Positions 4,350-18,244 of a stretch of DNA of 64,000 bases are shown piece by piece. The notes under the pieces were generated by a model. It saw nothing but the letters and a program-made list of their open reading frames with translations, was not told the origin of the DNA and searched no databases. Numbering within the stretch: the stretch's first letter is position 1; the number at the start of each line of letters is the position of its first letter. Made by a program: the position numbers and the translations under genes. The DNA comes from Candidatus Harrisonbacteria bacterium (GTDB taxonomy: Bacteria; Patescibacteriota; Minisyncoccia; UBA6257; 02-FULL-45-10c): contig JACROC010000005.1 in assembly GCA_016214655.1 (NCBI GenBank), positions 131,078 to 195,077 on the forward strand. The letters are read 5' to 3'.

Positions 4350-6596
4350 TTATAATCGATGCCTACGGAGAAGAATAGCGTTGACGGCTACAATAACCGT
4401 TGAAAGCGACATAAAAACTGCGGAAATCGCCGGCTGAAGCAGAATACCTTTTGATACCAAAACTCCGGCCGCCAATGGCAAAGCTATAAGATTATAACCG
4501 GTAGCCCAAAAAAGATTTTGGATCATTTTATTATAGGTCAGACGGGAAAGTTTAATAATTTTTACGATATCCCGGGGGTCATTTCTCACTAGAATAATCC
4601 CTGCCGATTCAATCGCCACATTAGTACCGGCGCCGATTGCTATTCCCAAATCCGCCTGAGTAAGAGCCGGGGCATCATTAATGCCGTCGCCAACCATAGC
4701 AACTTTTAAAGCACGCGATTGAAGCCGCTTAACTCGATCAACCTTATCTTCCGGAAGCACCCTGGCAAAATATTCGTCTATCTGCAATTCATTGGCCACC
4801 CAATGCGCAACTTCTTCGGAATCACCGGTAAGCATTGCCGTTCTTACTCCCAAATTTTTTAATTCTTTGACTGCTTCTTTGGATTCTTCCCGGATTATAT
4901 CCGCCAGCACAATAACGCCAGCCGGCTGATCTCCGATTATTACATAATTAATCGTTTTGCCTTGCCGGGCTAAATCCAAAATCTGAGATTTCAATTCCTC
5001 CGGAATTTCCGCTTTAAACTCTTTTAAAATCTTTTCTCCGCCAACCGCCACTGTAATACTCTTCACCACCCCCCTGACGCCCTTACCCGGCAATCTCTCA
5101 AAATTTTCTACCGGCAATAATTCCACCCCCAATCTCTCAGCTTCTTTGACTATCGCCTTACTGGCAAAATGCTCAGACCGATTATCCACTGAAGCGGCGA
5201 ATTGCAGCAACTGGTATCCGGCAGCCGGAATATCCGTCCTCCTGGGCATAGTAAATTGCGACAAAGCAAATTTAAATATAGGAAACTGCGGATTGGGAAT
5301 TATTTTATCTATGCCATACTCGCCCCTGGTAAGAGTTCCGGTTTTATCAAAAAGCACGACATCAATCTTACGGGCGGCTTCCAGCGCCAGTCTTTGCCGC
5401 ACCAACAATCCATTTTGCGCGGATTTTGTGGTAGATATGGAAGCCACCAGCGGAACAGCGAGGCCCAAAGCATGCGGACAGGCGATTACCAGCACGGCAA
5501 CAAAACGCTCTAAGGCGAAAATCGCTCCCGCCCCGACGAAAATCCAATACCAAAAAGAGGATAGTCCGCTGACAATCGCTATAATAGTCAGATAGAATGC
5601 GGCGCGGTCGGATAAAATTTGAATACGCGATTTAGACGCTTGCGCTTCTTCCACCAATCTCATAACTCCGGATAAAAATGTATTTTCTCCTATTTTAGTT
5701 ATCCGTACCTTGAGGCTGCCGTCGCCATTGATGGTTCCGGCAATTACTTCGTCATTTTTTTTCTTTGCAACCGGCTTGGATTCACCGGTAACCATGGCTT
5801 CATTAATGTCCGAACTTCCATCAATTATCATCCCATCCGCCGGAATTTTTCCGCCAGGCCTGACCAAAACTACATTATCAACCCTCAATTCACTAATAGG
5901 AACGATCTTGGTTTTATCGTTCTTCATTAATATCTCCGCGGTATCCGGCAATAATTTAGAAAGTTCTTTAAGAGCGCGCTGCGCTCCCTGCACTGACCGC
6001 ATTTCTATCCAATGACCCAAAAGCATTATGGTAATCAAGCTTGTCAGCTCCCAGAACAAAGTGCTTGGCTCACCGGTAATGGTACCTAGCCGAATTAAAA
6101 GAATTTGTAAAACACTGTAAATATACGCCGCCCAGATTGCAATGCCAATCAAGGTCATCATCCCGGGAAGGCGTCCCTTAACCTCCAGCCATGCCCCGCG
6201 CGTAAATATCCAGCCGCCATAAAAAAATACAATTGTACTCAGGGCAAGCTGAATATAATCAGAACCGAGAAATGCCGGAGCTTGCCAACCCAAAAATCTT
6301 GCAGGAAGTTCCGAATAAAGCACTACCGGAATAGTCAGGGCTAAGCTAATCCAGAATTTCCGCAAAAACATCTGAGTACTGTGCCCAGCATGTTTGTCCG
6401 CAATAGATTCAGCATCGACGGATTTCCCTTCTTTTCTCTCTGCGGGTACCAGCTTCATTCCGCACTCCGGGCAAAGACCCGGTTTTTGCCGCTGAATCTC
6501 CGGATGCATCGGGCAGGTATAAATTATCCCCTCAGACACCTCTTTATCTTCATTCGCCATCTGATTATTTTTATTTTCCATATTGCAACAATCCAT
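4350..6596 (-). CDS. heavy-metal (copper) translocating P1B-type ATPase
   Basis: DKTGTLT phosphorylation motif, GDGINDAP hinge, TGES actuator motif, and the TM metal site ACPHALGL (CPH). The N-terminus has TCPMHPEIQRQKPGLCPECGMKL, a Cys-rich metal-binding module. Confidence 0.9.
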   Translation of the reverse strand: MDCCNMENKNNQMANEDKEVSEGIIYTCPMHPEIQRQKPGLCPECGMKLVPAERKEGKSVDAESIADKHAGHSTQMFLRKFWISLALTIPVVLYSELPARFLGWQAPAFLGSDYIQLALSTIVFFYGGWIFTRGAWLEVKGRLPGMMTLIGIAIWAAYIYSVLQILLIRLGTITGEPSTLFWELTSLITIMLLGHWIEMRSVQGAQRALKELSKLLPDTAEILMKNDKTKIVPISELRVDNVVLVRPGGKIPADGMIIDGSSDINEAMVTGESKPVAKKKNDEVIAGTINGDGSLKVRITKIGENTFLSGVMRLVEEAQASKSRIQILSDRAAFYLTIIAIVSGLSSFWYWIFVGAGAIFALERFVAVLVIACPHALGLAVPLVASISTTKSAQNGLLVRQRLALEAARKIDVVLFDKTGTLTRGEYGIDKIIPNPQFPIFKFALSQFTMPRRTDIPAAGYQLLQFAASVDNRSEHFASKAIVKEAERLGVELLPVENFERLPGKGVRGVVKSITVAVGGEKILKEFKAEIPEELKSQILDLARQGKTINYVIIGDQPAGVIVLADIIREESKEAVKELKNLGVRTAMLTGDSEEVAHWVANELQIDEYFARVLPEDKVDRVKRLQSRALKVAMVGDGINDAPALTQADLGIAIGAGTNVAIESAGIILVRNDPRDIVKIIKLSRLTYNKMIQNLFWATGYNLIALPLAAGVLVSKGILLQPAISAVFMSLSTVIVAVNAILLRRHRL

Positions 6597-6599
6597 ATA

Positions 6600-6869
6600 T
6601 TATTTTCGCTTTGAAAGTTTATAAATATCTAAAATCTCTTTCACTGACCTTGAAATGCTGCCCGACCTCATCTGATCCGCCGTATGCGTAGCAAGATGAT
6701 GCTCTAAAATCAGGTCCTCAATACCTGAAAGCGCCTGCTTTACCGCGGAAGATTGATGCAAGATCGTAACACAATATGCATCCTCATCGATCATTTTTTG
6801 AAGGCCGCGTATTTGCCCTTCAAGTATTTTTAATCTCCTCATGGCCCTTCTCTTTACCGCTTCTTTCAT
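6600..6869 (-). CDS. csoR: CsoR/RcnR-family metal-sensing repressor
   Basis: RLKILEGQIRGLQKMIDEDAYCVTILHQSSAVKQAL matches the DUF156/CsoR helix pattern with Cys/His ligands. Start moved to MKEAVKRR because the promoter and operator lie inside the longer ORF. Confidence 0.8.
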   Translation of the reverse strand: MKEAVKRRAMRRLKILEGQIRGLQKMIDEDAYCVTILHQSSAVKQALSGIEDLILEHHLATHTADQMRSGSISRSVKEILDIYKLSKRK

Positions 6870-6903
6870 ATTCCCATGATACCCTAGGGGGGTATTACTT
6901 GTC
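6863..6903 (-). promoter_or_regulatory. sigma70-like promoter with an embedded CsoR-operator-like inverted repeat
   Basis: The minus strand reads TTGACA-agtaATACCCccctaGGGTATCAT-gggaat-ATG. That is a -35 TTGACA, an 18-nt spacer and a -10 TATCAT. The GC-rich inverted repeat ATACCC-N5-GGGTAT (6879-6895) overlaps the spacer and the -10. Confidence 0.6.
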
Positions 6904-6908
6904 AAGAC

Positions 6909-8123
6909 CTATTCATATCTTAATGCCTCCGCCGGTTCCATTTGAGCAGCTTGCCGAGCCGGCAACAAACCGGAAACTATACCGGTAATAAAAGTTATAA
7001 TTAAAATAACTAAAAATCCGAAGAGGTCTAAGGCGGCAAATGAAAATAATCCCCGAATACCAAATTGAGCTGCGATTAATCCGACCAAATAAGCTGCAGT
7101 CACACCTAAAATAATACCCAAAATTCCGCCAACTAAACCTATCATCCCGGACTCGATCAAAAAGAGCGACAGAATACTGTCGGAAGATGCGCCAATTGCT
7201 TTCATAACTCCTATTTGCTTTGTCCGTTCCAAAACCGCTGTGTACATCGTATTCATAATGCCGACAGCGCCAACTAATAACGAGATAAGGGCAATAACAA
7301 ACAGAACTGTTTCCACGATAGTTAAAACATCCCCGATAATATTGCCGATTTTCTCCGGAGTCAGCACAGAAAAATCTTCCACTGCTTTTTGCTGGCTTAA
7401 CTGAAATTCAATCTGCTTGGTAACTAAATCCGGATTAACACCCGGTTCAATTTTAATAGCGGCAGAAATAATCCCCGGCCGCGCACCAGTTAATTGACGG
7501 AACATATTTAAAGACGCATATACAACGTTATCCGCCATTTGCTCCCCAATCGGCGAAAGCACGCCCACCACCTTCATTCTTTTAGATTTTAAAATTATTT
7601 CCTCGCCAACTCTCATTTTATTTTTAAAAAGATCTTCCGCAATCCTATGGCCGATTACTACTTCATTGATATCTTCATTTTCCGGCCAGCGACCATCGTG
7701 TAATTTTAATCCCTGCGACTCTTCATAGATTAATTTATATTTACTCCATGGGGCACCGTGAATCATGACGGGTTTTTTCTCGCCTCGAAATTCGCTATTA
7801 ACAACCGCTATATCCATTGGCGCCACAAATCTGACGCCTCTTATATTCGCCAAAGCCAGGATATCCTGATCTCTGAATCTGGCTCCACCCACTAACGTAG
7901 CGACAGATTCTATAGGATTAGTAACCTTACCCGGACGGATAATAATTAAATCAGATCCAAACATTTGCAGGGTCTTAGCGATACTATTTTTAATTCCGGA
8001 ACTTAGGGAAAGTATAATAACTACCAGCATTATTCCGATAATAATGCCCAAAATCGTGAGCCAACCGCGGATCGGGCGGTAACGGATACTTTTTAAGGTT
8101 AAAGATAAAAATTTCTTTAGCAT
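6909..8123 (-). CDS. ABC transporter permease, MacB/FtsX type
   Basis: N-terminal TM, a large periplasmic domain, and a C-terminal FtsX-like three-TM bundle. Adjacent to a MacB-type ATPase and an HlyD adaptor. Confidence 0.85.
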   Translation of the reverse strand: MLKKFLSLTLKSIRYRPIRGWLTILGIIIGIMLVVIILSLSSGIKNSIAKTLQMFGSDLIIIRPGKVTNPIESVATLVGGARFRDQDILALANIRGVRFVAPMDIAVVNSEFRGEKKPVMIHGAPWSKYKLIYEESQGLKLHDGRWPENEDINEVVIGHRIAEDLFKNKMRVGEEIILKSKRMKVVGVLSPIGEQMADNVVYASLNMFRQLTGARPGIISAAIKIEPGVNPDLVTKQIEFQLSQQKAVEDFSVLTPEKIGNIIGDVLTIVETVLFVIALISLLVGAVGIMNTMYTAVLERTKQIGVMKAIGASSDSILSLFLIESGMIGLVGGILGIILGVTAAYLVGLIAAQFGIRGLFSFAALDLFGFLVILIITFITGIVSGLLPARQAAQMEPAEALRYE

Positions 8124-8126
8124 AAA

Positions 8127-8984
8127 CTATTCGGTATAAATCTTTTGATGAACTTGGTGATTTCGCACTAAACGACCATCTTTTAAAGTAATGACTTGAT
8201 CCGCCTTTCCGGCAATATCTGCATCGTGAGTTATGATAATTAAAGTTTTTTTCTGAATTTTATTCAGATTAACCAGCATTTCTAAAATTTTATTGCCAGT
8301 TGCAGAATCCAAATTTCCAGTCGGCTCATCACCTAAAATTATTTTCGGGTCATTAGCCAAGGCCCGAAGCAACGCAGTCCGCTGCTGTTCGCCGCCAGAT
8401 AATTCAAAGGGGCGATGCGTCATCCGCTCCTTCAAGCCAGCCTCCCGGAAATTCGCCTCCAATCTGCTCTCATCAATCTTTGTCCCGGCAAATACCAGCG
8501 GCAAAATCACATTTTCATAAGCGGTCAGCCAGGGTATTAAATTATATTGTTGGAAAACAAAGCCAAAAACACTGGAACGAAGCTCAGCGCGTTCTTCATC
8601 CGAGAACAAAGAAATATCTTTTCCTTTAAAAAAAATTTTACCGGAAGTCGGGCGATCCAAGAGTCCAATCATATTCAAAGCTGTGCTTTTTCCGGAACCG
8701 CTGGCGCCAATGATAGAAACAAAATCTCCTTCCCAAACATGGAGATCCAATCCCTGCAATGCCATAGTTTCCGCCTTGCCGGTATTAAATACCTTCCACA
8801 CCGCACTTAGACGGATCAATGGTTCGCCCAGGAATTTTTCCGGATTTTTTTTAAACCGGCCCCCACATCCCCCGCTGCAAAAATAAACCGATTTCCCCTT
8901 ACGAATAATAGTAATAAGATCGGAAAATTCCGCGAGATCCATTCCGCAAACAGGATCAATTTTTTGATCAGACCATCCGCTCAT
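8127..8984 (-). CDS. ABC transporter ATP-binding protein (MacB/LolD type) with an N-terminal YHS/TRASH metal-binding domain
   Basis: Walker A GASGSGKST, signature LSGGEQQR, Walker B IILGDEPT. The N-terminal 50 aa are DPVCGMDL...YFCSGGCGGRFKKNPEKF. Confidence 0.85.
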   Translation of the reverse strand: MSGWSDQKIDPVCGMDLAEFSDLITIIRKGKSVYFCSGGCGGRFKKNPEKFLGEPLIRLSAVWKVFNTGKAETMALQGLDLHVWEGDFVSIIGASGSGKSTALNMIGLLDRPTSGKIFFKGKDISLFSDEERAELRSSVFGFVFQQYNLIPWLTAYENVILPLVFAGTKIDESRLEANFREAGLKERMTHRPFELSGGEQQRTALLRALANDPKIILGDEPTGNLDSATGNKILEMLVNLNKIQKKTLIIITHDADIAGKADQVITLKDGRLVRNHQVHQKIYTE

Positions 8985-9002
8985 AAATGAAATTTTTGTG
9001 TA

Positions 9003-10571
9003 TTATTCAGCCGAAACAGCAACCGTCTGTCCGTCTGTAAGTCCCTTGATTACCTCAACCAATTCTCCGTCAGATATTCCGGTTTCTATTTCGCTATCCA
9101 GTAAAACGCTTCCGGTACCCGCAGCTTTCTGTCCCGACGGCAACACTTTGACGAATTTTTTTCCTCCTTTTTCATAAACCGTCAAAGCTGGAATTTTAAT
9201 AACATCATTTTTAAAAGAAGTCATTATTTTAAGATCCGCACTCATGCCATTACGAACCGCTTCATCCGACTTCTCTAAATAAATAATAATCCGGTAATAT
9301 TTATCGCCTTCCTTGATAATTTCTTTCGGTTCAATAGAAAATACCTTGCCCTTAAAATCCTGCCCGGGAAACGCGTCAAACTGAACCGCAACATTATTGC
9401 CGTTAACTTCCCGGATTTTATATATATCCAACTCGGAAACATCGGCTTGAATTTTTTGACCCAAGGCATTCAAGGAAACTGCCGGCTGGCCCGGACGGAA
9501 AATTTCCCCCTCTTCCAGCCAGATCTTATTCAACATCCCCTGGGCCGGAGCAGATAATATTGATTTCCGCACTTTATCTCTTACTGAAGCAATCTGACTT
9601 TCTGCTTCTTTAATTCCAGCCTGAGCCGCGTCAAGATCTTCTTTTCGCGTACCAGATTTCTTAAAAATCAATTCATTCTCAGCGACCGATAAACTAGATT
9701 CGGCGCTCCGTAATTTTTCCTGCGCCGAAGAAAAATTGGTCAAAGCCGTATTGATATTGGCCCGAGCCGTAGATACATCTGATCGCCAGGAATCAATTGC
9801 AGTTTGGGTAAGATTAGCTCCGGGAGTAAGAGTGTTAATCGCGATTGCCGTAATATCCAAAAATTGTTTAGTTTGATTTAAATTCTTATTAGCCGTAAAA
9901 GCATAGTCACTTAAATTACTGCTTTTGTTAAGCAGAGACAGCGAAATATTCCAAGCAACCAGCATTGATTCAATTGCTACCCGCCCAGATTCCAAACTGG
10001 TTTTAAGCTGGCCATCCGATAATGAAAGGTTAACTTGCGGGTTAGAACTTCGCGGATTACTGAACCACTGATCGGTTTTACTTTTAATGGCATCGTCGGA
10101 TTTTGTATAAGCATCCTGAATTTTATCAATCAATCCCTGTTTGGCATCTTCTAATGCGATTTTAGCGCTGGAAACCTTTGCTTCCGAGATGTTTATCTCT
10201 TCCTGAGTTGCGCCCGATAAAAGCTTATTTAAATTCGCTTTTCTTTGATCCAAAACAGCTGATAATTTTTGTATTTCTATCTCCAAGTCGGTGGTTTCCA
10301 ATTTTACCAGCGGGGCACCCTTAGAAACGCTTTGTCCTTCCTTAACATAAATCTTTTCAATAATCCCGGAAAAGGGAAGCTCTAAGTTAAATTCTTTTTG
10401 TGACACGACTTCCCCCCTTACTCTCACCACTTCCTGAATACTTCCGCGTTCAACCGGGAATAACAAAAACGCCGGTTTTTCCTGCCGGAAATATTTCTGG
10501 TATACCCAAAAAGAGACAGTAGCCAACCCCGCAACTACAATTAAAATCAAATAATAAGATAGTTTTTTCAT
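9003..10571 (-). CDS. HlyD/MacA-family periplasmic adaptor with an extended coiled coil
   Basis: Signal-anchor, lipoyl-like motifs (KEGQSVSKGAPLVKL), a long alpha-helical hairpin and C-terminal beta domains. Confidence 0.75.
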   Translation of the reverse strand: MKKLSYYLILIVVAGLATVSFWVYQKYFRQEKPAFLLFPVERGSIQEVVRVRGEVVSQKEFNLELPFSGIIEKIYVKEGQSVSKGAPLVKLETTDLEIEIQKLSAVLDQRKANLNKLLSGATQEEINISEAKVSSAKIALEDAKQGLIDKIQDAYTKSDDAIKSKTDQWFSNPRSSNPQVNLSLSDGQLKTSLESGRVAIESMLVAWNISLSLLNKSSNLSDYAFTANKNLNQTKQFLDITAIAINTLTPGANLTQTAIDSWRSDVSTARANINTALTNFSSAQEKLRSAESSLSVAENELIFKKSGTRKEDLDAAQAGIKEAESQIASVRDKVRKSILSAPAQGMLNKIWLEEGEIFRPGQPAVSLNALGQKIQADVSELDIYKIREVNGNNVAVQFDAFPGQDFKGKVFSIEPKEIIKEGDKYYRIIIYLEKSDEAVRNGMSADLKIMTSFKNDVIKIPALTVYEKGGKKFVKVLPSGQKAAGTGSVLLDSEIETGISDGELVEVIKGLTDGQTVAVSAE

Positions 10572-11275
10572 GTTACTTTAATTCTATACCATTTTAGATG
10601 TTCATACACACTCGGCCAATAAAAGCCAAAGCTTAACGCGAAAATTAATTCTTCTATTGGCACGCCGAAGATTAAAATGCCAGAAATAGCGGACAAATTC
10701 CAAACTTGCTCAACATAACCAGGATAAAGAATGGTCAAGGTTAAAAAATATATGAAATATAAACCAATAAAAATAATAGCGCTGACAAACATCTTATTTT
10801 TAAGATCGGGGCGGCAATACCGGGTAAAAAGACCGGCCCCAACTAATGCCACAGACGCGGAATAAATATGATTCCAATCAGTGAAAATTAAAAGCAAGAC
10901 AAAAATTATCGGCCCAGAAACTAATGCCCAAAAATGATATCGGTGACGGGAATGCCGGCGCTCCTCATCAGACATCGCTTCATGCAAGGTTGGGAAAAAA
11001 TTCTCATAGATAACTACTGCCAATCCGCCTATTCCGAAAGAAAATAAAAAACTTTCAATATCAAATCCTGTTCTCAACGCTAAATCAAATAAAGACGGCG
11101 GGCTCCAATATTCCGGAACAAAAAGCGGCTCAGTTGCGCCAAGAAGCGATGTCCACAAGCTAACCCTCAACATCTCTTTACGGCTTTCTTGATTCCGCAA
11201 AAAAAAGTAGACCGCGAGCCAGATGGCCAAAAGCATTAGACTCCATACCAGCCAAGCGTAGTGCTGATCAAACAT
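10568..11275 (-). CDS. polytopic membrane protein, possibly a lycopene-cyclase-domain family member
   Basis: Seven hydrophobic helices. GVPIEELIFALSF resembles the PxEE motif of CrtYc/Yd-type domains. The family call is weak. Confidence 0.35.
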   Translation of the reverse strand: MFDQHYAWLVWSLMLLAIWLAVYFFLRNQESRKEMLRVSLWTSLLGATEPLFVPEYWSPPSLFDLALRTGFDIESFLFSFGIGGLAVVIYENFFPTLHEAMSDEERRHSRHRYHFWALVSGPIIFVLLLIFTDWNHIYSASVALVGAGLFTRYCRPDLKNKMFVSAIIFIGLYFIYFLTLTILYPGYVEQVWNLSAISGILIFGVPIEELIFALSFGFYWPSVYEHLKWYRIKVT

Positions 11276-11280
11276 AATTT

Positions 11281-11541
11281 TTATAAACGGTTATATAACG
11301 AAGCAAAAAGCCAGCCGCCTAGGTAAGAATAAACTACCGCCTGAATAAGTCCAGCCACAAATCCCCCGAAGGTTACAGCTACATCACCGGCAAACTTATC
11401 TACATTTACCAGATGAACTAACCAACCGAACGATTGCAAAGAAAACTCTGGCCATAAATACACAAATGCGGCGCAAATTAAATAGACAATACCCATTCCT
11501 AATGCAGCGGCTTTCGCAAATTTTGAAACATCTAATTGCAT
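11281..11541 (-). CDS. small membrane protein
   Basis: 86 aa with 2-3 TM helices, in an operon. Confidence 0.4.
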   Translation of the reverse strand: MQLDVSKFAKAAALGMGIVYLICAAFVYLWPEFSLQSFGWLVHLVNVDKFAGDVAVTFGGFVAGLIQAVVYSYLGGWLFASLYNRL

Positions 11542-11557
11542 AAATATTTTTTTAAAA

Positions 11558-12706
11558 TTAATTTAACGACCCTTTATTTAATACTTTTAAGACAAGTGAG
11601 GCGATATAATGGCCGTTAATAAAAGCATCCTCTGTGCCGGCCACATTGTGGTCATTAGCTAAAAATAGATTAGGTTCGGGATTTTCGTTTATATATTCAT
11701 TCCCATGGAAGAAAAGCGCCGGCCGCCACTCGCCCTTAGCAATGATCTCCCGTTCATCGAAATATTTGGCAATATTATCTTTGCTCCCGTAAAAATAGAG
11801 ATAGGTGCCATTTGGTTCACGAGAAATCGCCGCCTCTTCTTCTATCGGAAAAAAATTATACCAGGGAACATTGTATTCTTTTTTAATCCTTCCCCGTAGA
11901 TGGTAATAATTTACATTAATTCCGTCTTTAATTCTTTGCGGCTTTACTAATTGATTAGCAATATTCATCGGCGTGGCAAGGACTAAAATATCACCACCGT
12001 AGGCTTTGCCGGATTTGGTTTCGATTTTAAATTTTTGATTATCCAACCGCCTTACTTTTACAACTGAATCCAAAGTTATTTTATCCCGAAAAGGCGCCGT
12101 AAGCTTTCCAAAATTGAATTTAAAAGACCAGCTCGGGACAATAATTGTGTCCAAAACAGCGAGAAAGATAGCCGCAGAAACTTCCCGCGGATTAGTAAAA
12201 TACGCTGCCCATAAAAATTGCTCCAAATATTCCTTAGTTAGATCTTCCAATCCCTTTTCTTTTATATAATCCGCAGCTTTTTGATGATAGAATTTTTTAA
12301 GATAGGGGTCGGCTTCTATTAATTTTTGATAAGAAACATCCAGCGCTTGCTTGCGAATTTTTTGCACGTGGCTGCGGAATTTAAAAAGTTCCCGCAATAA
12401 TTTTATTCCAGCCGGAATATGCTTCAGCATCCGCAAAGAATAAGCATGATAATGCTCCTGGCCGCGATGAAAATGTGCCTTGGCAAAATGCATCAAATTC
12501 ACCTTTTCAATGTAAGGCAGAATATTATGGCAATCAGCGGTAACGTAATAAGCTCCATAATTCGTCTCGCCATCCGGAGAAGTCTTGATGCGCCCACCGA
12601 TATCTTCGGTAATTAATCTAAAATCGGCGCCATTCTCCTGAAAACGCTTGGCGCATCCGAGACCATTCAATCCGCCGCCAACAATTATGATCTTATAATG
12701 CTCCAT
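11558..12706 (-). CDS. FAD/NAD(P)-binding oxidoreductase (amine-oxidase / desaturase-like)
   Basis: N-terminal Rossmann dinucleotide motif IIIVGGGLNGLGCA...E. Confidence 0.7.
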   Translation of the reverse strand: MEHYKIIIVGGGLNGLGCAKRFQENGADFRLITEDIGGRIKTSPDGETNYGAYYVTADCHNILPYIEKVNLMHFAKAHFHRGQEHYHAYSLRMLKHIPAGIKLLRELFKFRSHVQKIRKQALDVSYQKLIEADPYLKKFYHQKAADYIKEKGLEDLTKEYLEQFLWAAYFTNPREVSAAIFLAVLDTIIVPSWSFKFNFGKLTAPFRDKITLDSVVKVRRLDNQKFKIETKSGKAYGGDILVLATPMNIANQLVKPQRIKDGINVNYYHLRGRIKKEYNVPWYNFFPIEEEAAISREPNGTYLYFYGSKDNIAKYFDEREIIAKGEWRPALFFHGNEYINENPEPNLFLANDHNVAGTEDAFINGHYIASLVLKVLNKGSLN

Positions 12707-12716
12707 AGCTCATTTA

Positions 12717-12971
12717 TTATCTTAAGCCCTCAAACTTTTTCCGAAACTGGTCTTCGGTCGCTCCGCCCATCATAAAAAATTCATCATTAACCAAAATGCC
12801 AGGGCTTGAAAGAATGCCATGCTTCTGAACCAGCGCCTGTCCTTCCGGCGTAACCATATCTATTTCCTCAACAACTAAATTTGAATTTTCTTTTAACAAT
12901 TTTTCTAAGACTTTCTTGACTGCAATGCAATGGGTACACCCCTTTGGCCTGATCAACGTTACTTTAATCAT
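12717..12971 (-). CDS. small thioredoxin/glutaredoxin-like protein
   Basis: 84 aa with the CxxC motif (GCTHC) near the N-terminus, and a Trx-fold length. Confidence 0.7.
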   Translation of the reverse strand: MIKVTLIRPKGCTHCIAVKKVLEKLLKENSNLVVEEIDMVTPEGQALVQKHGILSSPGILVNDEFFMMGGATEDQFRKKFEGLR

Positions 12972-12989
12972 AATTTTTTTATTAATTTA

Positions 12990-13181
12990 TTAGCCGACCT
13001 TATTCTCGGAAGAATCTTCTGTAATATATTTATTGGGATTTTTATCAAACTCTGCCGGACAGCTATCACAACAAAAATAATACTTTTTTCCTTTATATTC
13101 CCGAACCCACCCCATTTTTTCCGCAAACTCCTTGTCCGCAGGAATTTTCATAACCGGACAAATTATCTGGTCTTCCTTCAT
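12990..13181 (-). CDS. YHS/TRASH-domain metal-binding protein
   Basis: CPVMKIP...YYFCCDSCPAEFDKNPNKY. Confidence 0.75.
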   Translation of the reverse strand: MKEDQIICPVMKIPADKEFAEKMGWVREYKGKKYYFCCDSCPAEFDKNPNKYITEDSSENKVG

Positions 13182-13199
13182 AAAAGTTATTTAAATCTA

Positions 13200-13397
13200 T
13201 TAATTTTTGATATTCATTGACCTTTTGTGACGCATCCGCCGCGAAATAATAATTGTAAAAACAATAATAAGCAATGCTGTAATCGGGCCTGCCAATTCAG
13301 CTTCGGCCAAATTAGTTATTTCCTCTTCCGCCTCGCCGAGTTCATGAGCAAACGCGGATATCGGCACTAAAAAAAGATAAGTAATAAAAAATTTCAT
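13200..13397 (-). CDS. small exported/membrane protein
   Basis: Signal peptide (ISAFAHE), an acidic stretch, a TM helix and a basic tail. Confidence 0.4.
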   Translation of the reverse strand: MKFFITYLFLVPISAFAHELGEAEEEITNLAEAELAGPITALLIIVFTIIISRRMRHKRSMNIKN

Positions 13398-13404
13398 TTT
13401 TGTT

Positions 13405-14394
13405 TTATTGATCTAAATTATTATATTCCTTATTATAAGCCGCATCCCATAAAATAATTGCGCTAATGATGGCGGCAAAAACAATCCAGGGAATAATCCC
13501 GCCAATCCCCTCCGGCAAATTCAATGACGCTTCAATGATGGATGATTCGGCAATTTTCGGGAAAATAATTTCCAGCGCCCTATTCCAAGACTGATGAATG
13601 ATTGAGTTTTCGAACCAGGCCATTCCAAATGCGCCATAAGTGAAAATAAACGATCCTAATCCAACCAATGCCCAAGCAACCCAATGTTTAACTTTTATCT
13701 GGTAAGCACTCAGCCAATTCATGGCATTAACTCCCAAAACCGCCAAGACTACAAAAAATAATAGCGGCACCATTCTTCCTAAGCCATGCAACGCGCCCAG
13801 CGATGCGCCAATAACCGGATTTCCCAGCGTAGCGACATAACCAAAAATAATATAAAAAGCCGGGTTAGGACAACCCACTCCGGCGTTACCAAGGAAAAAC
13901 CCCAAAAAGAAACTGCGGATATAATCATTTTTATCCTGTAAAAAAACCGGGAGGATTGTTTGCTTAAAGGGTAATTTGAATTTAATCAGATCAAGTTCTG
14001 AAAGACCGAAAATCAACGCCGCCATCCCGCCGGCAATAAGCATATAACTGATGATCTTATATAACTCAATAAAACCGCCGAGCCAACCCAAGGCCATGCC
14101 ATAGATAGTAAAAGTTAACGTTAGTCCTGCTCCAAAAAGCAATGCCATTAGAATCCCCTTGCCATTTTTTTTAGAAAGCGCAAGTGGCACAATGATAAAT
14201 ATCAATGGGAAAGTGCATGGCAGAAAAATCATGGAAATGCCGGCAAGAAATGCCAGAGACAAGCCGGGAATAAACTGCGGCGAGGTCCAAAGGCTAAAAA
14301 GACCGATTAGAATAATCGAAAAAAGGATAAAGGCAGCAGCCACTAGCCATATTTTTATGCTATTCACTGGCATATTTATAATTATATACCACAT
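13405..14394 (-). CDS. divergent CcdA/DsbD-like thiol-disulfide transporter
   Basis: Polytopic membrane protein with two intramembrane Cys-Pro style motifs (IFLPCTFP and GVGCPNP), as in the DsbD/CcdA core. Its start overlaps the upstream stop by 13 nt. Confidence 0.55.
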   Translation of the reverse strand: MWYIIINMPVNSIKIWLVAAAFILFSIILIGLFSLWTSPQFIPGLSLAFLAGISMIFLPCTFPLIFIIVPLALSKKNGKGILMALLFGAGLTLTFTIYGMALGWLGGFIELYKIISYMLIAGGMAALIFGLSELDLIKFKLPFKQTILPVFLQDKNDYIRSFFLGFFLGNAGVGCPNPAFYIIFGYVATLGNPVIGASLGALHGLGRMVPLLFFVVLAVLGVNAMNWLSAYQIKVKHWVAWALVGLGSFIFTYGAFGMAWFENSIIHQSWNRALEIIFPKIAESSIIEASLNLPEGIGGIIPWIVFAAIISAIILWDAAYNKEYNNLDQ

Positions 14395-14564
14395 CCCCCG
14401 CCGCCTTTTATCGGCGTTGAAATTTCTTTTTGATCAGCCTGCCGAACCCCTTGCGTCTTGGCAGAAACTTGTTTACTGACCGAATAAATCCAGGAAGCAG
14501 AAACCAATAACGCGGCCATGACTATGCTTGCCGCTAAAAGATTATTCGCTGAATTATTCTTCAT
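14382..14564 (-). CDS. 60-aa signal-anchored protein ending in GGGGCGI
   Basis: One N-terminal TM helix, a polar linker and a C-terminal Gly4-Cys-Gly-Ile. Translationally coupled to the CcdA-like gene. Confidence 0.45.
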   Translation of the reverse strand: MKNNSANNLLAASIVMAALLVSASWIYSVSKQVSAKTQGVRQADQKEISTPIKGGGGCGI

Positions 14565-14583
14565 AATTTTTAGTTATTGATTC

Positions 14584-15501
14584 CTATAACCCGCAACCAC
14601 CTCCGCCGCCACCTTGAACCGGCTGTACTTGGGAAAGAATTCTTTGAAAACCAAGTGCGCTGGAAAAATCAGCCCCCAAAACTTCCCGGGGGTTAACAAC
14701 ATCCCAAGCAACCCCTTTTTGTTTAAAGTATTGCGCAATCGTCAAATAAGTATCCGGAAACCAATAAGAATTTACCCGGAGCGCAACCTTATACATCTCG
14801 GCTTCAGAAATTCCCTGCGAAGCCATAAGCTCCAAAAGACCAAGCATGGCCATGCCGTGATTGCAATCGGGAAAATAAGTTGAATTTCCACAGCACGGGC
14901 GATAAACATTTTTTGAAACTCTTTCCACTAAAGCCTTCTGCTCCGTAGTCAGCCGTAAAAATTCATGCGCGGAATAATGGTCCATCGCATCACCGACGGC
15001 CGCTGTCCATCCTCCGGTAGAAGCAAACCTGCCGGCGCCGCCGTAACGCGGATCTGACATCGGCCCCTCCTCCAAAACTTCACTTTTATTGCCGAGCCCC
15101 AAACCCCACAGCAAATTCAAAAGAAAACCTGAATTTTCCGGGGTAATCTTCAATCTTCCATTATCGGCTCCGTAAAGCAGTTTTCTTTCTTCTTCATTTA
15201 TTCCGCCCCGCTGGGAATAAATTTCCTCAAATTTTTCTTGATCCATCACGCCGCTTTCCGCCAGCCGCCTGCCCAGATCTCCCCACACTACTGGCAACTC
15301 TACGCCGTTGGACGGCAAAACCCGCTCCTCAAATTCCGTTTGTGAACCGATTTGCTTTGTAATCGCTGCCGTCTGGCGGCTAACCGGAGCCCCCAAACCA
15401 TTAGTGTATATCCATGCAAAAGCCATAATCACTAATGATAAAATCAGGCTAAACGGTAAATAATTCTTTTGATTTTCTATATTTTGATTTTGTTCTTCCA
15501 T
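14584..15501 (-). CDS. signal-anchored Cys-rich extracytoplasmic protein ending in GGGGGGCGL
   Basis: 305 aa with an N-terminal TM helix, the conserved-looking cluster RPCCGNSTYFPDCNHGMAM, and a C-terminal Gly6-Cys-Gly-Leu. Confidence 0.6.
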   Translation of the reverse strand: MEEQNQNIENQKNYLPFSLILSLVIMAFAWIYTNGLGAPVSRQTAAITKQIGSQTEFEERVLPSNGVELPVVWGDLGRRLAESGVMDQEKFEEIYSQRGGINEEERKLLYGADNGRLKITPENSGFLLNLLWGLGLGNKSEVLEEGPMSDPRYGGAGRFASTGGWTAAVGDAMDHYSAHEFLRLTTEQKALVERVSKNVYRPCCGNSTYFPDCNHGMAMLGLLELMASQGISEAEMYKVALRVNSYWFPDTYLTIAQYFKQKGVAWDVVNPREVLGADFSSALGFQRILSQVQPVQGGGGGGCGL

Positions 15502-15508
15502 AAATTTA

Positions 15509-15898
15509 TTAATTGTTTAATTTACACCTGCTCTCTTTAGCTAAATTCTCCAAGCCCTGTTCTCCGACTAATTTTTTGCCATCCGGAAAAATCCAAGTCG
15601 GGAAAGACTCAATTCCCGCAGCCAAACAACGCTTTGGATCTTTTGGACATTCAACATAAGGCACGAACCGGAAAGAGCGTCCGAATTGTTTTTTCTCGTT
15701 CTGGCAATGCGAACACCAATTCGCTCCATACATTACAATTTTTTCATCCGCTAAACATTGCGCAAATGAATCCATGATAGTATCGGTATTTCTATTATTC
15801 CATGAAATCCACCAAATGGAAAAGGCGGAAACTAAAACTATAATTGAAGCAATATAAGTTTTCTCAAGAAAATTATATTTATTCATCGCAGCAATCAA
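15509..15898 (-). CDS. membrane-anchored thioredoxin-like protein
   Basis: N-terminal TM helix. YGANWCSHCQNEKKQFG is the CxxC Trx-fold motif of the type fused to VKOR/DsbB analogs. Confidence 0.7.
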   Translation of the reverse strand: MIAAMNKYNFLEKTYIASIIVLVSAFSIWWISWNNRNTDTIMDSFAQCLADEKIVMYGANWCSHCQNEKKQFGRSFRFVPYVECPKDPKRCLAAGIESFPTWIFPDGKKLVGEQGLENLAKESRCKLNN

Positions 15899-16376
15899 CC
15901 AATTTATTTACGATATCCTGCAACGTCCATGGCTTCTCTTCCGCCGCGGCCTTTTTAAAACCGGAAACATCTATCAGCTTCAGCCGCAGACCCCAGAACA
16001 TTGAATAAATTTTATAGGCTTGCGAAAAGACTTCTTGCGCCTCGGTTTTTTTATTTTCCGAGTGAAGTTTAGTGCCGACTTCAATAAGTCTCATGGCAGT
16101 TGCAAGTAAATGCTTAGAAATACACCAGGTTTCTCCCTCGTGTTTATCAATCATCTTTCCTAGCAATACCTTTCTGATCGCGCGGGCATCATTTAGCAGA
16201 TCAAAATATTCCGGCTTACCAGTTTTAGCTCCCGTGAAAAAGAAATGTTCTTCCAAACTAATCAGGTTCATGACCGCAATACTCAAATCCTCTTCCGTTG
16301 ATAAATCGATTTGTCCAGATTTCTTCAATGCTTCAATTTTTTTAATCAATGCTTCCAAATTTTTTTGATTATCCAT
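15879..16376 (-). CDS. cytoplasmic helical protein ending in DCCDE
   Basis: 165-aa ORF with no TM helix and a C-terminal vicinal Cys pair. It overlaps the downstream gene by 20 nt. Confidence 0.5.
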   Translation of the reverse strand: MDNQKNLEALIKKIEALKKSGQIDLSTEEDLSIAVMNLISLEEHFFFTGAKTGKPEYFDLLNDARAIRKVLLGKMIDKHEGETWCISKHLLATAMRLIEVGTKLHSENKKTEAQEVFSQAYKIYSMFWGLRLKLIDVSGFKKAAAEEKPWTLQDIVNKLVDCCDE

Positions 16377-16382
16377 ATCAAT

Positions 16383-17210
16383 TTACAAAAAGAAAATTAA
16401 TAAACCCAAGACGACCATTGCTATGCCTCCCCAAAGACGCATATTATGGGTTTCTGCCTTTTTCCATTCCTGCACCTTAGCCAAAAGCAATTGATTGCTT
16501 GCAATCAGCAGAATGATAACTAATGGCAAAATGAAAATCGCGTTATATAGAAGGAGATAGCCAAGACCGCTGATAAATGTCGCTTTATCATGCAGCAAAC
16601 CAAGAATCATCAGATACGGTCCTCCAGTACAAGGAAACTCGCATAACCCGACTAAAACACCAAGTAAAAAGGCCGTTGGCGAAGACGCCTTTTCCATTAA
16701 TTCTGCCATTTTATGATGCGCCGCCTGCGGTATCCGCAATTTGACCGGAAAAGCCGGGAAAAACTCATTCATCAGATTAATCAATCCTAAAACCACCAGC
16801 AATCCCGCCCCTACTTTTGCCATAAAATGCGGGGTGTTAAAAAGATGAAGAACCTGCAAAATCCCGAGGCCGATCAAGATATAAACCAGAAAAATGCCGA
16901 ATATGTACATTCCGCCAATCTTAAGGATACCCGACCGCAGTTTACCGATACTAAGCAAAAAAGCGATCGTTAAAATTAGAATCGAAAAAGCGCAGGGATT
17001 AATACTATCTAGCAAGGAAGACACCAATACCAGAGGCAGCAGCCATTTCCCGCCATTGCTGAAACTCCACAAAAATGCCGTGCCGGCTCCGGTAAAACGG
17101 AAAAAGAAAAATAATCCGGCCAGCAAAATAACCGCCCCAACCAAAAATCCTAATTTTGATTTTGCATTATTGCCGCTTTGATTATTAAGCGGCTCATGAC
17201 AATTAGACAT
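16383..17210 (-). CDS. ccdA: cytochrome c biogenesis-type thiol-disulfide transporter CcdA
   Basis: Six-TM protein with DSINPCAF and CEFPCTGGPY motifs. Confidence 0.8.
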   Translation of the reverse strand: MSNCHEPLNNQSGNNAKSKLGFLVGAVILLAGLFFFFRFTGAGTAFLWSFSNGGKWLLPLVLVSSLLDSINPCAFSILILTIAFLLSIGKLRSGILKIGGMYIFGIFLVYILIGLGILQVLHLFNTPHFMAKVGAGLLVVLGLINLMNEFFPAFPVKLRIPQAAHHKMAELMEKASSPTAFLLGVLVGLCEFPCTGGPYLMILGLLHDKATFISGLGYLLLYNAIFILPLVIILLIASNQLLLAKVQEWKKAETHNMRLWGGIAMVVLGLLIFFL

Positions 17211-17231: not shown

Positions 17232-17744
17232 CTACGGCCGGACCACTGCCGTAAATCCCAATTCAACTTCTCCGGAATCGGTTTCTACATAAACCGAGCG
17301 CTGGATCGGACCCACGCCAGCCGGACCATGCGCCGCCGGATCAAAAGTGGCTTCAATTCTTACTTCCTCGTCTCCGGAAATAACTTGGTTAATACGCGGC
17401 ACAACTCCATGCCCGGGCATGCCGAACGGCCCGCGAGCCTTCCCATCCTTCAGCATCAGCGTCGCCGTGGTGCACATGCAGGAAGTATAAATTTTATTGA
17501 TCGTCAGCGGATTCTCCGATCTATTTTTAAGAGTGAATACCTTGCTCACTTTGCCATCAGCCATAGAAATATCGCCAAAATCAAAATTAGACTCATCAGC
17601 AACTAATTTATTTTCCGAAACCGATGACACGGATGCCGTCTGAAGATTCTTGCTTGAAGAATCTGAAGATGCCAACCAAATAATTCCGCCAAAAACCAAG
17701 AAAGTAACGAGGGTGATTATAATGACTTCTTTGTAATGTTGCAT
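17232..17744 (-). CDS. DUF1573-domain exported protein
   Basis: Start moved to MQHYKEV. FDFGDI...FTLKNRSENPLTINKIYTSCMCTTA matches the DUF1573 pattern. Confidence 0.7.
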   Translation of the reverse strand: MQHYKEVIIITLVTFLVFGGIIWLASSDSSSKNLQTASVSSVSENKLVADESNFDFGDISMADGKVSKVFTLKNRSENPLTINKIYTSCMCTTATLMLKDGKARGPFGMPGHGVVPRINQVISGDEEVRIEATFDPAAHGPAGVGPIQRSVYVETDSGEVELGFTAVVRP

Positions 17745-17836
17745 AATAACTAAAAAATTAATTTTAAAAAAATAAAATGCCCCGTAAAAGGGGTTAGAGG
17801 ACGGCAAAACCGGAAGCTGTCGACAAACAACTCCGA

Positions 17837-18244
17837 TTAAGCGCCCGAAACTAACGCCGGACTATTCTCATGCAAAGCAATCCAACTGAGTAAAGGTTGA
17901 TTGATACTGCCCAGAACCACTGCCGCGCCCAATCTCCAAAAAGAATCTGAATGCGGCGAGACTAGAGATGCCGTAAAAGCTAAGCCAAGCAAAATAAAGG
18001 CCAATGCAGTTAGAAAAATCGAAGCCCAGCCCGCCACCGCTCTAGTAAAGGTGTGAAATGCCTGCATATGGAATCCAACCACCGCAAAAGGGTTGTTGCT
18101 TGTGCAAATCTTACCCTGAAGCATTTCGGCAACGCAGCCATGCCCATGAGCCATTGTAGAAAAACCAAAAATAGCAATAGCGGCAAGAACTACAATAAGA
18201 AGAATGGCCAGTATCGATTTCATATGATTAAAGTATACCACCAA
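17837..18244 (-). CDS. membrane protein with a His/Cys-rich loop
   Basis: 135 aa with 3-4 TM helices and MAHGHGCVAEMLQGKIC. Confidence 0.45.
   Translation of the reverse strand: MVVYFNHMKSILAILLIVVLAAIAIFGFSTMAHGHGCVAEMLQGKICTSNNPFAVVGFHMQAFHTFTRAVAGWASIFLTALAFILLGLAFTASLVSPHSDSFWRLGAAVVLGSINQPLLSWIALHENSPALVSGA

Follow-up and report, generated by a model that had tools for sequence, protein, structure and literature searches.

What is a glycine-rich tail with a single cysteine doing at the very end of two neighbouring membrane-anchored proteins of a Patescibacteria member? The question is raised by a stretch of 64,000 nucleotides from Candidatus Harrisonbacteria bacterium (contig JACROC010000005.1), which was analysed over its whole length and is called the window in the following; all coordinates count from its first letter. 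An open reading frame (ORF) for a protein of 305 amino acids (aa), located at 14584..15501 on the minus strand, has the C-terminus ...VQPVQGGGGGGCGL, and a second one for 60 aa, at 14382..14564 on the same strand, has the C-terminus ...PIKGGGGCGI. Both share the ending G(4-6)-C-G-[IL]-stop, and no third ORF with such a tail turned up when all six frames of the 64-kb window were scanned. Briefly, the 305-aa protein represents a very large family (here called FAM) whose gene belongs to a conserved module of copper defence and thiol-redox functions, and its tail may act as a membrane-tethered arm for Cu(I) and thiol exchange outside the cytoplasm.

The similarity of the two tails, from which the original prediction started, is real and not a product of chance. 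In the 305-aa protein the tail QGGGGGGCGL is encoded at 14587..14616 (minus strand) with the TGC codon of Cys303, three residues from the C-terminus, at 14593..14595; the corresponding Cys58 of the 60-aa protein is encoded by TGT at 14391..14393 (minus strand). The glycine codons of the two genes differ (GGC GGC GGG GGA TGT GGT ATA for the 60-aa protein, GGT GGC GGC GGA GGT GGT TGC GGG TTA for the 305-aa protein) and the G+C content of the window is 41.8 %. The tail is therefore neither a DNA repeat nor a GC-rich artefact, an objection that had been raised in advance. Scans with Pfam and NCBIfam assigned neither of the two proteins to a family.

The terminal cysteine is conserved in orthologs, so that a check proposed beforehand came out positive. 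It is found at position −3 from the C-terminus in 120 of 120 close FAM homologs and within the last five residues in 129 of 134 complete diverged representatives (50 % identity level), namely at −3 in 116, at −4 in six, at −1 in another six and at −5 in one. In 236 out of 249 tailed sequences the chain stops two residues after the cysteine. Position −2 is occupied most often by G, then S, then A, and position −1 by V followed by A, I and L; Gly accounts for 39 % of the eight residues preceding the cysteine. Most of the proteins (120/129) have exactly four Cys in the domain: a CC pair, the Cys of a DCNH motif and the tail Cys. Short variants without the last helical segment still end in C-x-[AV]. 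Furthermore, ten FAM proteins carry two to three tandem tail units on linkers of about 12–15 residues, a multiplicity typical of metal-capturing tails. The tail itself is disordered, with a predicted local distance difference test (pLDDT) value of 52–67 in the AlphaFold2 (AF2) model of the 305-aa protein.

With the CTERM and LPXTG signals, the CaaX box and the lipobox the tail has in common a Gly- or Cys-containing motif, which is situated at or near the C-terminus in the first three and at the N-terminus in the lipobox. It nevertheless matches no known sorting signal, as originally stated: NCBIfam gave no match and only two residues follow the Cys. GlyGly-CTERM, PEP-CTERM, MYXO-CTERM and LPXTG were rejected, as the motif is not followed by a hydrophobic transmembrane (TM) segment and a basic cluster; the CaaX box was rejected with Cys at −3 instead of −4, Gly at −2 and a domain predicted to be extracellular, and the lipobox because it is N-terminal. 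A selenocysteine variant of the tail was also rejected, as no family ORF among the sets examined stops just before the Cys position.

A search of a large protein database returned more than 7,169 FAM homologs, and all of the named ones come from Patescibacteria. An exhaustive profile search yielded 720 clusters at 50 % identity with E<=1e-3, 286 of them with E<=1e-30, and the gene was found in at least 575 species of a genome collection. One cluster includes a DPANN archaeon, so that the family extends beyond the bacteria; this representative (P0273) stems from a Candidatus Diapherotrites archaeon. For 53 FAM members Pfam gave no family even at E<=10. FAM is a very large protein family without a Pfam or NCBIfam model. 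Neither for the family nor for its four-Cys signature, the single-Cys Gly-rich tail or a mini-protein consisting of anchor and arm was a curated model or literature found by the searches made; a literature search for the tail strings returned only primer-like strings.

The other three cysteines lie in the globular part of the protein, where the original prediction had pointed out a dense Cys/His cluster. This cluster, RPCCGNSTYFPDCNHG at residues 201–216 (14854..14901, minus strand), is the invariant core motif R-P-C-C-x-N...F-P-D-C-N-H-G of the family with the invariant columns R201, P202, C203, C204, N206, F210, P211, D212, C213, N214, H215 and G216, and it extends as R-P-C-C-x-N...F-P-D-C-N-H-G-M-A-M. 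The pattern CC.N....DCNH was present in all complete diverged representatives. The AF2 model of the 305-aa protein has a mean pLDDT of 85.5 and a predicted template modelling (pTM) score of 0.79, and consists of a TM helix (residues 14–34), a mostly helical globular part (62–290) and the low-confidence tail. Within the globular part a segment of three helices (about residues 183–262; 14716..14955, minus strand) resembles CcmH in the model; the loop that joins its helices 1 and 2 carries the Cys cluster. CcmH is a single-TM-anchored thiol-disulfide oxidoreductase with a three-helix bundle and the motif LRCPKC in the helix 1–2 loop; it is supplied by DsbD/CcdA and CcmG in the established cascade DsbD > CcmG > CcmH (PMC3884852).

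Like the CcmH/CycL/NrfF proteins (PF03918; PDB 2HL7, 2KW0), FAM would be an extracytoplasmic protein with a single TM anchor, a three-helix bundle like that of the periplasmic domain of CcmH and reactive Cys in the helix 1–2 loop after a conserved Arg, encoded alongside an anchored thioredoxin similar to CcmG and an electron conduit of the CcdA/DsbD type. An hhalign comparison placed YRPCCGNSTYFPDCNHGMAM..ELMASQG of FAM onto LRCPKCQNNS-IADSNSMIA..ELM-QEG of CcmH; deep profiles lengthened the alignment to 62 columns with P 0.018, a score also reached by 5 of 150 column-shuffled controls. In this alignment the Arg and the D-x-N of FAM match those of CcmH, whereas the spacing of the Cys differs. 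The redox motif L-R-C-x-x-C of CcmH is not found in FAM, whose loop reads R-P-C-C-G-N...D-C-N-H; moreover, FAM has an additional N-terminal subdomain of about 120 aa, a C-terminal helical extension and the Cys tail, lacks an HMM match as well as a cytochrome c or heme-handling context, and is found in a copper context instead. The profile had no match among PDB sequences at E<=10, and Foldseek with the whole 305-aa model found nothing in the PDB. Judged from sequence and model, the FAM core thus appears CcmH-like in fold and architecture; it is probably not a member of PF03918 because the motif differs, an HMM match is missing and the context is copper and not heme. An HMA/CopZ-type ferredoxin-like domain with MxCxxC is not present in the 305-aa protein of the window, nor did Pfam and NCBIfam detect a pyridine-nucleotide disulfide oxidoreductase domain in it.

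On which side of the membrane do domain and tail reside? A single N-terminal hydrophobic helix occurs in both tailed proteins, in agreement with the original prediction. The conserved anchor of FAM (residues 14–34; 15400..15462, minus strand) contains ...AWIYT in the window and ...AW.YT in the family, with a nearly invariant Y32. In 70 proteins the N-terminal flank of this helix contains more K+R than the C-terminal flank, and the reverse holds for 23. This positive-inside bias, the lipoprotein forms and a natural fusion with an HMA domain suggest that domain and tail are located outside the cytoplasm, which supports the predicted extracytoplasmic position of the tail. In the fusion (P0127) a CopZ-like HMA domain precedes the FAM domain on the presumably cytoplasmic side of the anchor. 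Rhodanese domains are fused before the FAM domain in three further proteins (P0145, P0157, P0197), two of them behind lipoprotein signal peptides, and in P0135 the FAM domain is joined to TM141, a small membrane protein of the module, with SCCAHY within a TM helix. About 20 representatives and locus L040 have a multi-TM domain of about 200–250 aa with an intramembrane G-x-A-C-P-x-C-G in front of the FAM domain; the paralogous long form in L040 (13468..14958, minus strand) and P0196 contain this multi-TM CPxC domain, for which no family or specific fold match was obtained.

The 60-aa mini-protein (annotated as HZB99_02365) consists of a FAM-like TM anchor, a linker and the tail GGGGCGI. Its anchor is in register with that of the 305-aa neighbour (z 6.9 versus shuffles), and it looks like an internally deleted, cut-down copy of this neighbour. 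A word-index search of 5.8 billion proteins with the 60-aa sequence matched only itself. However, the contigs L081/L082, found via the closest FAM relative (67 % identity), encode a 59-aa ortholog at the same position, 20 nt downstream of the FAM gene, with 43 % identity (E 7e-16), the same anchor and the C-terminus TGGCGI. Mini-genes for anchor plus tail also follow FAM in L017, L021 and L064 (tail SGCG[VL]Q(Q)) and in L055. Those of L017, L021 and L064 are under purifying selection, with pN/pS 0.13–0.35 overall and about 0.05–0.1 in the TM segment. The 60-aa ORF, for which a lack of homologs had been considered a possible objection, has an ortholog and analogs, and by these comparisons it is a real gene. 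The gene 3' of the mini-gene varies: it encodes a CcdA-like protein in the window, a CcdA-like protein of the APCC type described below in L017/L021/L064 and a TM141-type protein in L082. The constant partner is therefore the upstream FAM gene and not the CcdA-like gene. The original prediction had called the CcdA/DsbD-like gene next to the mini-gene divergent and overlapping; it lies on the same strand as both tailed ORFs and diverges in sequence only. The overlap of 13 nt holds if the first ATG is the start, whereas an internal Met at residue 8 would abolish it.

The genomic context was analysed in 76 loci for gene order and counts and in 80 loci for ORF motifs; 46 loci were well flanked, with at least 4 kb on both sides. 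FAM is part of a conserved copper-defence and thiol-redox module. The recurrent same-strand order in the 76 loci is TM135 > DUF1573 > CcdA-like (275-aa or APCC type) > (u165) > (anchored thioredoxin) > FAM, followed by genes for a copper P-type ATPase, a CsoR-family repressor, TM141, SHOCT, DUF302 or DUF5676. A CcdA-like gene is found within 6 kb of FAM in 42 of the 46 well-flanked loci, usually adjacent to it, and CopA or CsoR in 44 (CopA in 38); the suggested check for co-occurrence of the tail with CcdA/DsbD-like genes and with copper genes thus came out positive. DUF1573 is encoded in 31 of these loci. Every other module member has invariant Cys motifs. The window matches the module order exactly, and an unbroken array with gaps of at most 29 nt extends from 18244 down to 4350.

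In the window the module is opened by TM135, a membrane protein of 135 aa (17837..18244, minus strand as all genes of the array), which occurs in 29 of the 76 loci and is always the first gene. Its His/Cys-rich stretch (MAHGHGCVAEMLQGKIC) contains an H-x-H-x-C pattern that was not found in the 29 homologs. The second gene (17232..17807, minus strand) encodes a DUF1573 Ig-like protein (PF07610 at 1.1e-12; 50/76 loci) with a CMC motif that is kept in 48 of 53 cases; selenoprotein forms of DUF1573 carry UGC (PMC9312934). It is followed by a 275-aa membrane protein with SfLAP/DsbD matches (16383..17210, minus strand), the second CcdA/DsbD-superfamily protein of the window, which was present in 36 of the 76 loci, always upstream of FAM and with its three Cys invariant in 36/36. 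The soluble protein u165 (165 aa; 15879..16376, minus strand) ends in ...LVDCCDE, and in 22 loci its gene separates the CcdA-like gene from that of FAM; there the C-terminus [DEAN]CC[DEKN]E was found in 22 of 22 homologs. It has no Pfam match, is presumably cytoplasmic and is the second protein of the operon with a C-terminal Cys motif. Directly upstream of FAM a membrane-anchored thioredoxin-fold protein (PF00085; 15509..15898, minus strand) with WCSHC is encoded, as in 10 of the 76 loci, with C[PSA]HC. On the other side, immediately downstream of the mini-gene, follows the CcdA/DsbD_TM-like membrane protein of 329 aa (PF02683 at 4.1e-08; 13405..14394, minus strand).

Two further membrane proteins are found in other loci. 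The APCC type is a CcdA/DsbD-superfamily protein of about 285 aa, encoded after FAM in L063 and also found in L008, L021, L064, L071 and L072. It has two CC pairs, LFAPCC... and ...TTCCAP..., at places where CcdA has a single Cys, and this arrangement is more reminiscent of a metal site lined by thiolates than of a relay for disulfides. TM141, a protein of about 141 aa (e.g. L001 ~11066..11491 and L082 2074..2376), often follows FAM; it contains an invariant SCC[AT]HY in a TM helix and has no Pfam or NCBIfam match.

The array of the window continues with a 65-aa small membrane protein, a YHS-domain protein (63 aa) and a Thioredoxin_3 protein (84 aa) at 12717..13397 (minus strand), and the block CcdA1 > s65 > Trx3 recurs in L027, L031, L056 and L060. 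An FAD/NAD-binding oxidoreductase-like protein, DUF5676 and a lycopene-cyclase-domain membrane protein (10568..12706, minus strand) recur together in a metal island of L083 (3842..5683). An HlyD/CusB-like adaptor, an ABC ATPase with an N-terminal YHS domain and an FtsX/MacB permease (6909..10571, minus strand) form an efflux set of the tripartite type in an organism for which no outer membrane is expected; L084/L085 have this block after FAM as well. Directly after FAM these two loci, which represent one lineage, encode a VKOR homolog (PF07884) and a DoxX protein (L084 5908..6354, L085 1246..1692), and VKOR, belonging to a disulfide-forming pathway, is an odd neighbour of a reducing CcdA pathway. 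The last two genes encode a metal-responsive repressor of the CsoR/RicR family (6600..6905, minus strand) and a copper P-type ATPase of the CopB type (P1B-3; 4350..6596, minus strand). The repressor has a C-H-H fingerprint, matches a CsoR-type seed in phmmer at 9e-37 and has RicR as best NCBIfam match; PF02583 was detected in L083. The ATPase reaches 544 bits with TIGR01511 (cutoff 397) and has CPH at residue 373 in TM4 and MSLST in TM6. Its N-terminus starts with MDCC... followed by a heavy-metal-binding domain, HMBD (YTCPMHPE...CPECGM), in place of a His-rich N-terminus. A promoter and terminator scan gave counts at shuffle background, and in the 64-kb window no Rfam family reached its gathering score.

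How could these components work together? The reading that we favour, and to which we give an even chance of being right, is that the tail is an extracytoplasmic tethered Cu(I)/thiol arm that is kept reduced via CcdA-type proteins. The 305-aa protein would be the membrane-anchored end component of a copper-stress thiol system of the Patescibacteria, positioned outside the cytoplasm. Its globular part would be a CcmH-like three-helix redox module bearing the invariant CC...C-x-H cluster, and the last ~15 residues a disordered Gly-rich arm whose one invariant Cys acts as a tethered thiol. This arm might capture Cu(I) that is released at the outer face of the membrane, e.g. by the co-encoded CopB/CopA pump, and then pass it to the Cys3-His site of the core and the Cys-lined CcdA-like proteins, or exchange Cu(I) or a disulfide with them. 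The CcdA-like proteins, together with the anchored thioredoxin where present, would hold all four Cys in the reduced state. As an arm-only paralog with anchor, linker and tail, the 60-aa protein would add a second tethered thiol beside the same membrane partners. A role in metal handling is favoured because of the tandem tail units, the arm-only mini-proteins and the HMA fusion.

Several points weigh against such an arm. Binding of the metal and contact of the tail with its partners are steps that we infer. A lone Cys cannot chelate Cu(I), and a second ligand would have to come from the core or from a partner. The CsoR-family regulators near the module have mostly the C-H-H fingerprint (27 of 34) and not the canonical Cu(I) fingerprint C-H-C (7), so that the metal specificity is not proven by the regulator. 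A thioredoxin-fold gene was found in only 8 of the 46 well-flanked loci. As far as sequence is concerned, the link to CcmH is a weak one (hhalign P about 0.02, no Pfam match). Finally, in the AF2 model of a natural fusion with the CPxC membrane domain the tail is disordered (pLDDT <50) and the CPxC region is of low confidence.

Mobile C-terminal Cys tails are known from other systems. In MerA (-CC-x-x) and the high-Mr thioredoxin reductases (-GCUG or -GCCG) a flexible C-terminal arm connects a buried site with a partner by shuttling Hg(II) or electrons between the two. Like the FAM tail, these arms are flexible and Gly-flanked, with the reactive residue near the free C-terminus, and the -CC-x-E end of u165 recalls them as well. 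However, MerA and TrxR are cytoplasmic flavoprotein disulfide reductases with two adjacent redox residues, whereas FAM has one Cys, no flavoprotein domain and a predicted extracytoplasmic position. The CXC tail of CCS domain 3 and the C-terminal HCH of Ctr1 are short disordered Cys tails that acquire Cu(I) and hand it over to a partner site, and the CCS tail also handles a disulfide. In contrast to FAM, both are eukaryotic and cytosolic, have two ligands in the tail and are unrelated in sequence and fold.

Among bacterial systems the copper-linked envelope thiol system Scs with CueP (Salmonella, Proteus, Caulobacter) would be the closest functional analog of the proposed arm. In the copper-induced Scs system the DsbD-like ScsB and the thioredoxin-fold proteins ScsC/ScsD bind Cu+ and pass it to CueP, which also receives Cu+ from CopA (PMC10907172). 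Both systems combine a DsbD-like membrane protein with anchored or soluble thiol proteins, and the FAM module likewise has a DsbD/CcdA-type gene alongside and a genetic link to copper sensing and export. FAM is, however, not related to the Scs proteins in sequence or fold; these adopt the thioredoxin fold, contain CxxC and lack a C-terminal Cys arm. Furthermore, Scs is controlled by CpxR/A in diderm bacteria, in contrast to the module with CsoR in Patescibacteria. By analogy, the system would work like the known DsbD/CcdA-dependent envelope thiol systems (CcmG/CcmH, Scs) without being a member of any of them.

The main rival to a metal-handling arm is a pure thiol-disulfide relay, which we consider rather unlikely. 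FAM would then be a CcmH-like reductase or isomerase that repairs copper-oxidised envelope proteins and carries no metal. The tail Cys would be a resolving or shuttle thiol that pairs with the core Cys cluster in a mixed disulfide. Being slim, the tail could also get directly at the buried Cys of the CcdA-like proteins and so stand in for a thioredoxin-fold partner, which would account for the usual lack of a thioredoxin gene although a CcdA-like gene is nearly always close to FAM. Such a relay fits the CcmH-like fold, in which the Cys cluster occupies the corresponding loop, as well as the precedent of the DsbD > CcmG > CcmH cascade, and the rhodanese fusions point to sulfur or thiol chemistry. 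Copper stress, moreover, demands additional thiol repair in the envelope (PMC10907172). However, additional capture sites explain the tandem tails and arm-only mini-proteins more easily than additional resolving thiols do, the CopZ-like HMA fusion and the tight linkage to copper pumps suggest a metal hand-off, and the characterised redox arms of TrxR and MerA use two adjacent redox residues and not one.

A bolder proposal, to which only a small probability is assigned, takes the module as a Mer-like thiolate relay by which Cu(I), or a different thiophilic metal, would cross the membrane of these ultra-small bacteria without the use of ATP. The metal would pass from the cytoplasmic protein with the -CC-x-E end to the CC-lined channel of the CcdA superfamily and on to the extracytoplasmic -Gly-Cys-Gly-Val tails. 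These tails would be membrane-tethered stand-ins for a soluble low-molecular-weight thiol, with a Cys-Gly end that mimics glutathione, in hosts unable to retain a diffusible thiol on the outside, and the 60-aa protein would be the minimal unit, a lipid-anchored single thiol.

Alternatively, the Cys might have a structural or covalent role, which we regard as improbable: it would form an intermolecular disulfide in dimers or between the 305-aa protein and the mini-protein, or it would be modified covalently, for example by attachment of a lipid, a cofactor or a cell-surface polymer. The strict order of Cys at −3, a small residue and an aliphatic residue is indeed reminiscent of a motif recognised by an enzyme or by a domain that binds C-termini, and the genes of the two tailed proteins are direct neighbours. 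However, no candidate for a modifying enzyme and no PDZ-type partner recurs in the 80 loci, and variants with Cys at −1 or −4 exist. The CaaX box needs a cytosolic Cys and the CTERM signals need a TM helix with a basic patch, and both are absent. A lipid or other attachment would in addition provide a second anchor, which is unnecessary because the tailed proteins are already anchored in the membrane.

An ordinary thioreduction module of cytochrome c maturation (CcdA, ResA/CcmG, CcmH) that has gone unrecognised is highly improbable. The joint occurrence of a CcdA-like gene, an anchored thioredoxin and a CcmH-like fold would be expected of it. However, there is no ORF with a heme-handling WWD motif in the 80 loci, CxxCH occurs at chance level (11 of 2,037 ORFs), the neighbours are copper genes, and neither the motif LRCxxC nor a PF03918 match was found; in addition, an earlier report describes the Patescibacteria as generally lacking electron transport chains (PMC7507113). 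Lastly, a chance origin with a low-complexity Gly run, a fortuitous Cys and a spurious 60-aa ORF, to which the failure of the word-index search would lend some support, is already refuted by a tail kept in hundreds of diverged clusters, by the unlike codons and restriction of the tail to two ORFs of the window, and by the mini-protein ortholog and the constrained mini-genes of another lineage.

The Patescibacteria, also known as the candidate phyla radiation (CPR), account for a large part of the diversity of bacteria, and for most of the proteins conserved among them no function is known. One such family is defined here and set in a coherent operon that ties copper export to extracytoplasmic thiol chemistry, with a CsoR-family regulator, a CopB/CopA pump, CcdA-like proteins, DUF1573, the CC-ending protein and the tailed protein. 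With its reduction to anchor and arm, the 60-aa protein offers a minimal system for experiments. If the tail is indeed a tethered Cu(I)/thiol arm, functional handles would be gained on DUF1573, DUF5676, the CC-tail protein and the CC-lined CcdA-like proteins, and the module would represent a new solution to copper defence of the envelope in cells without a periplasm and most of the redox machinery.

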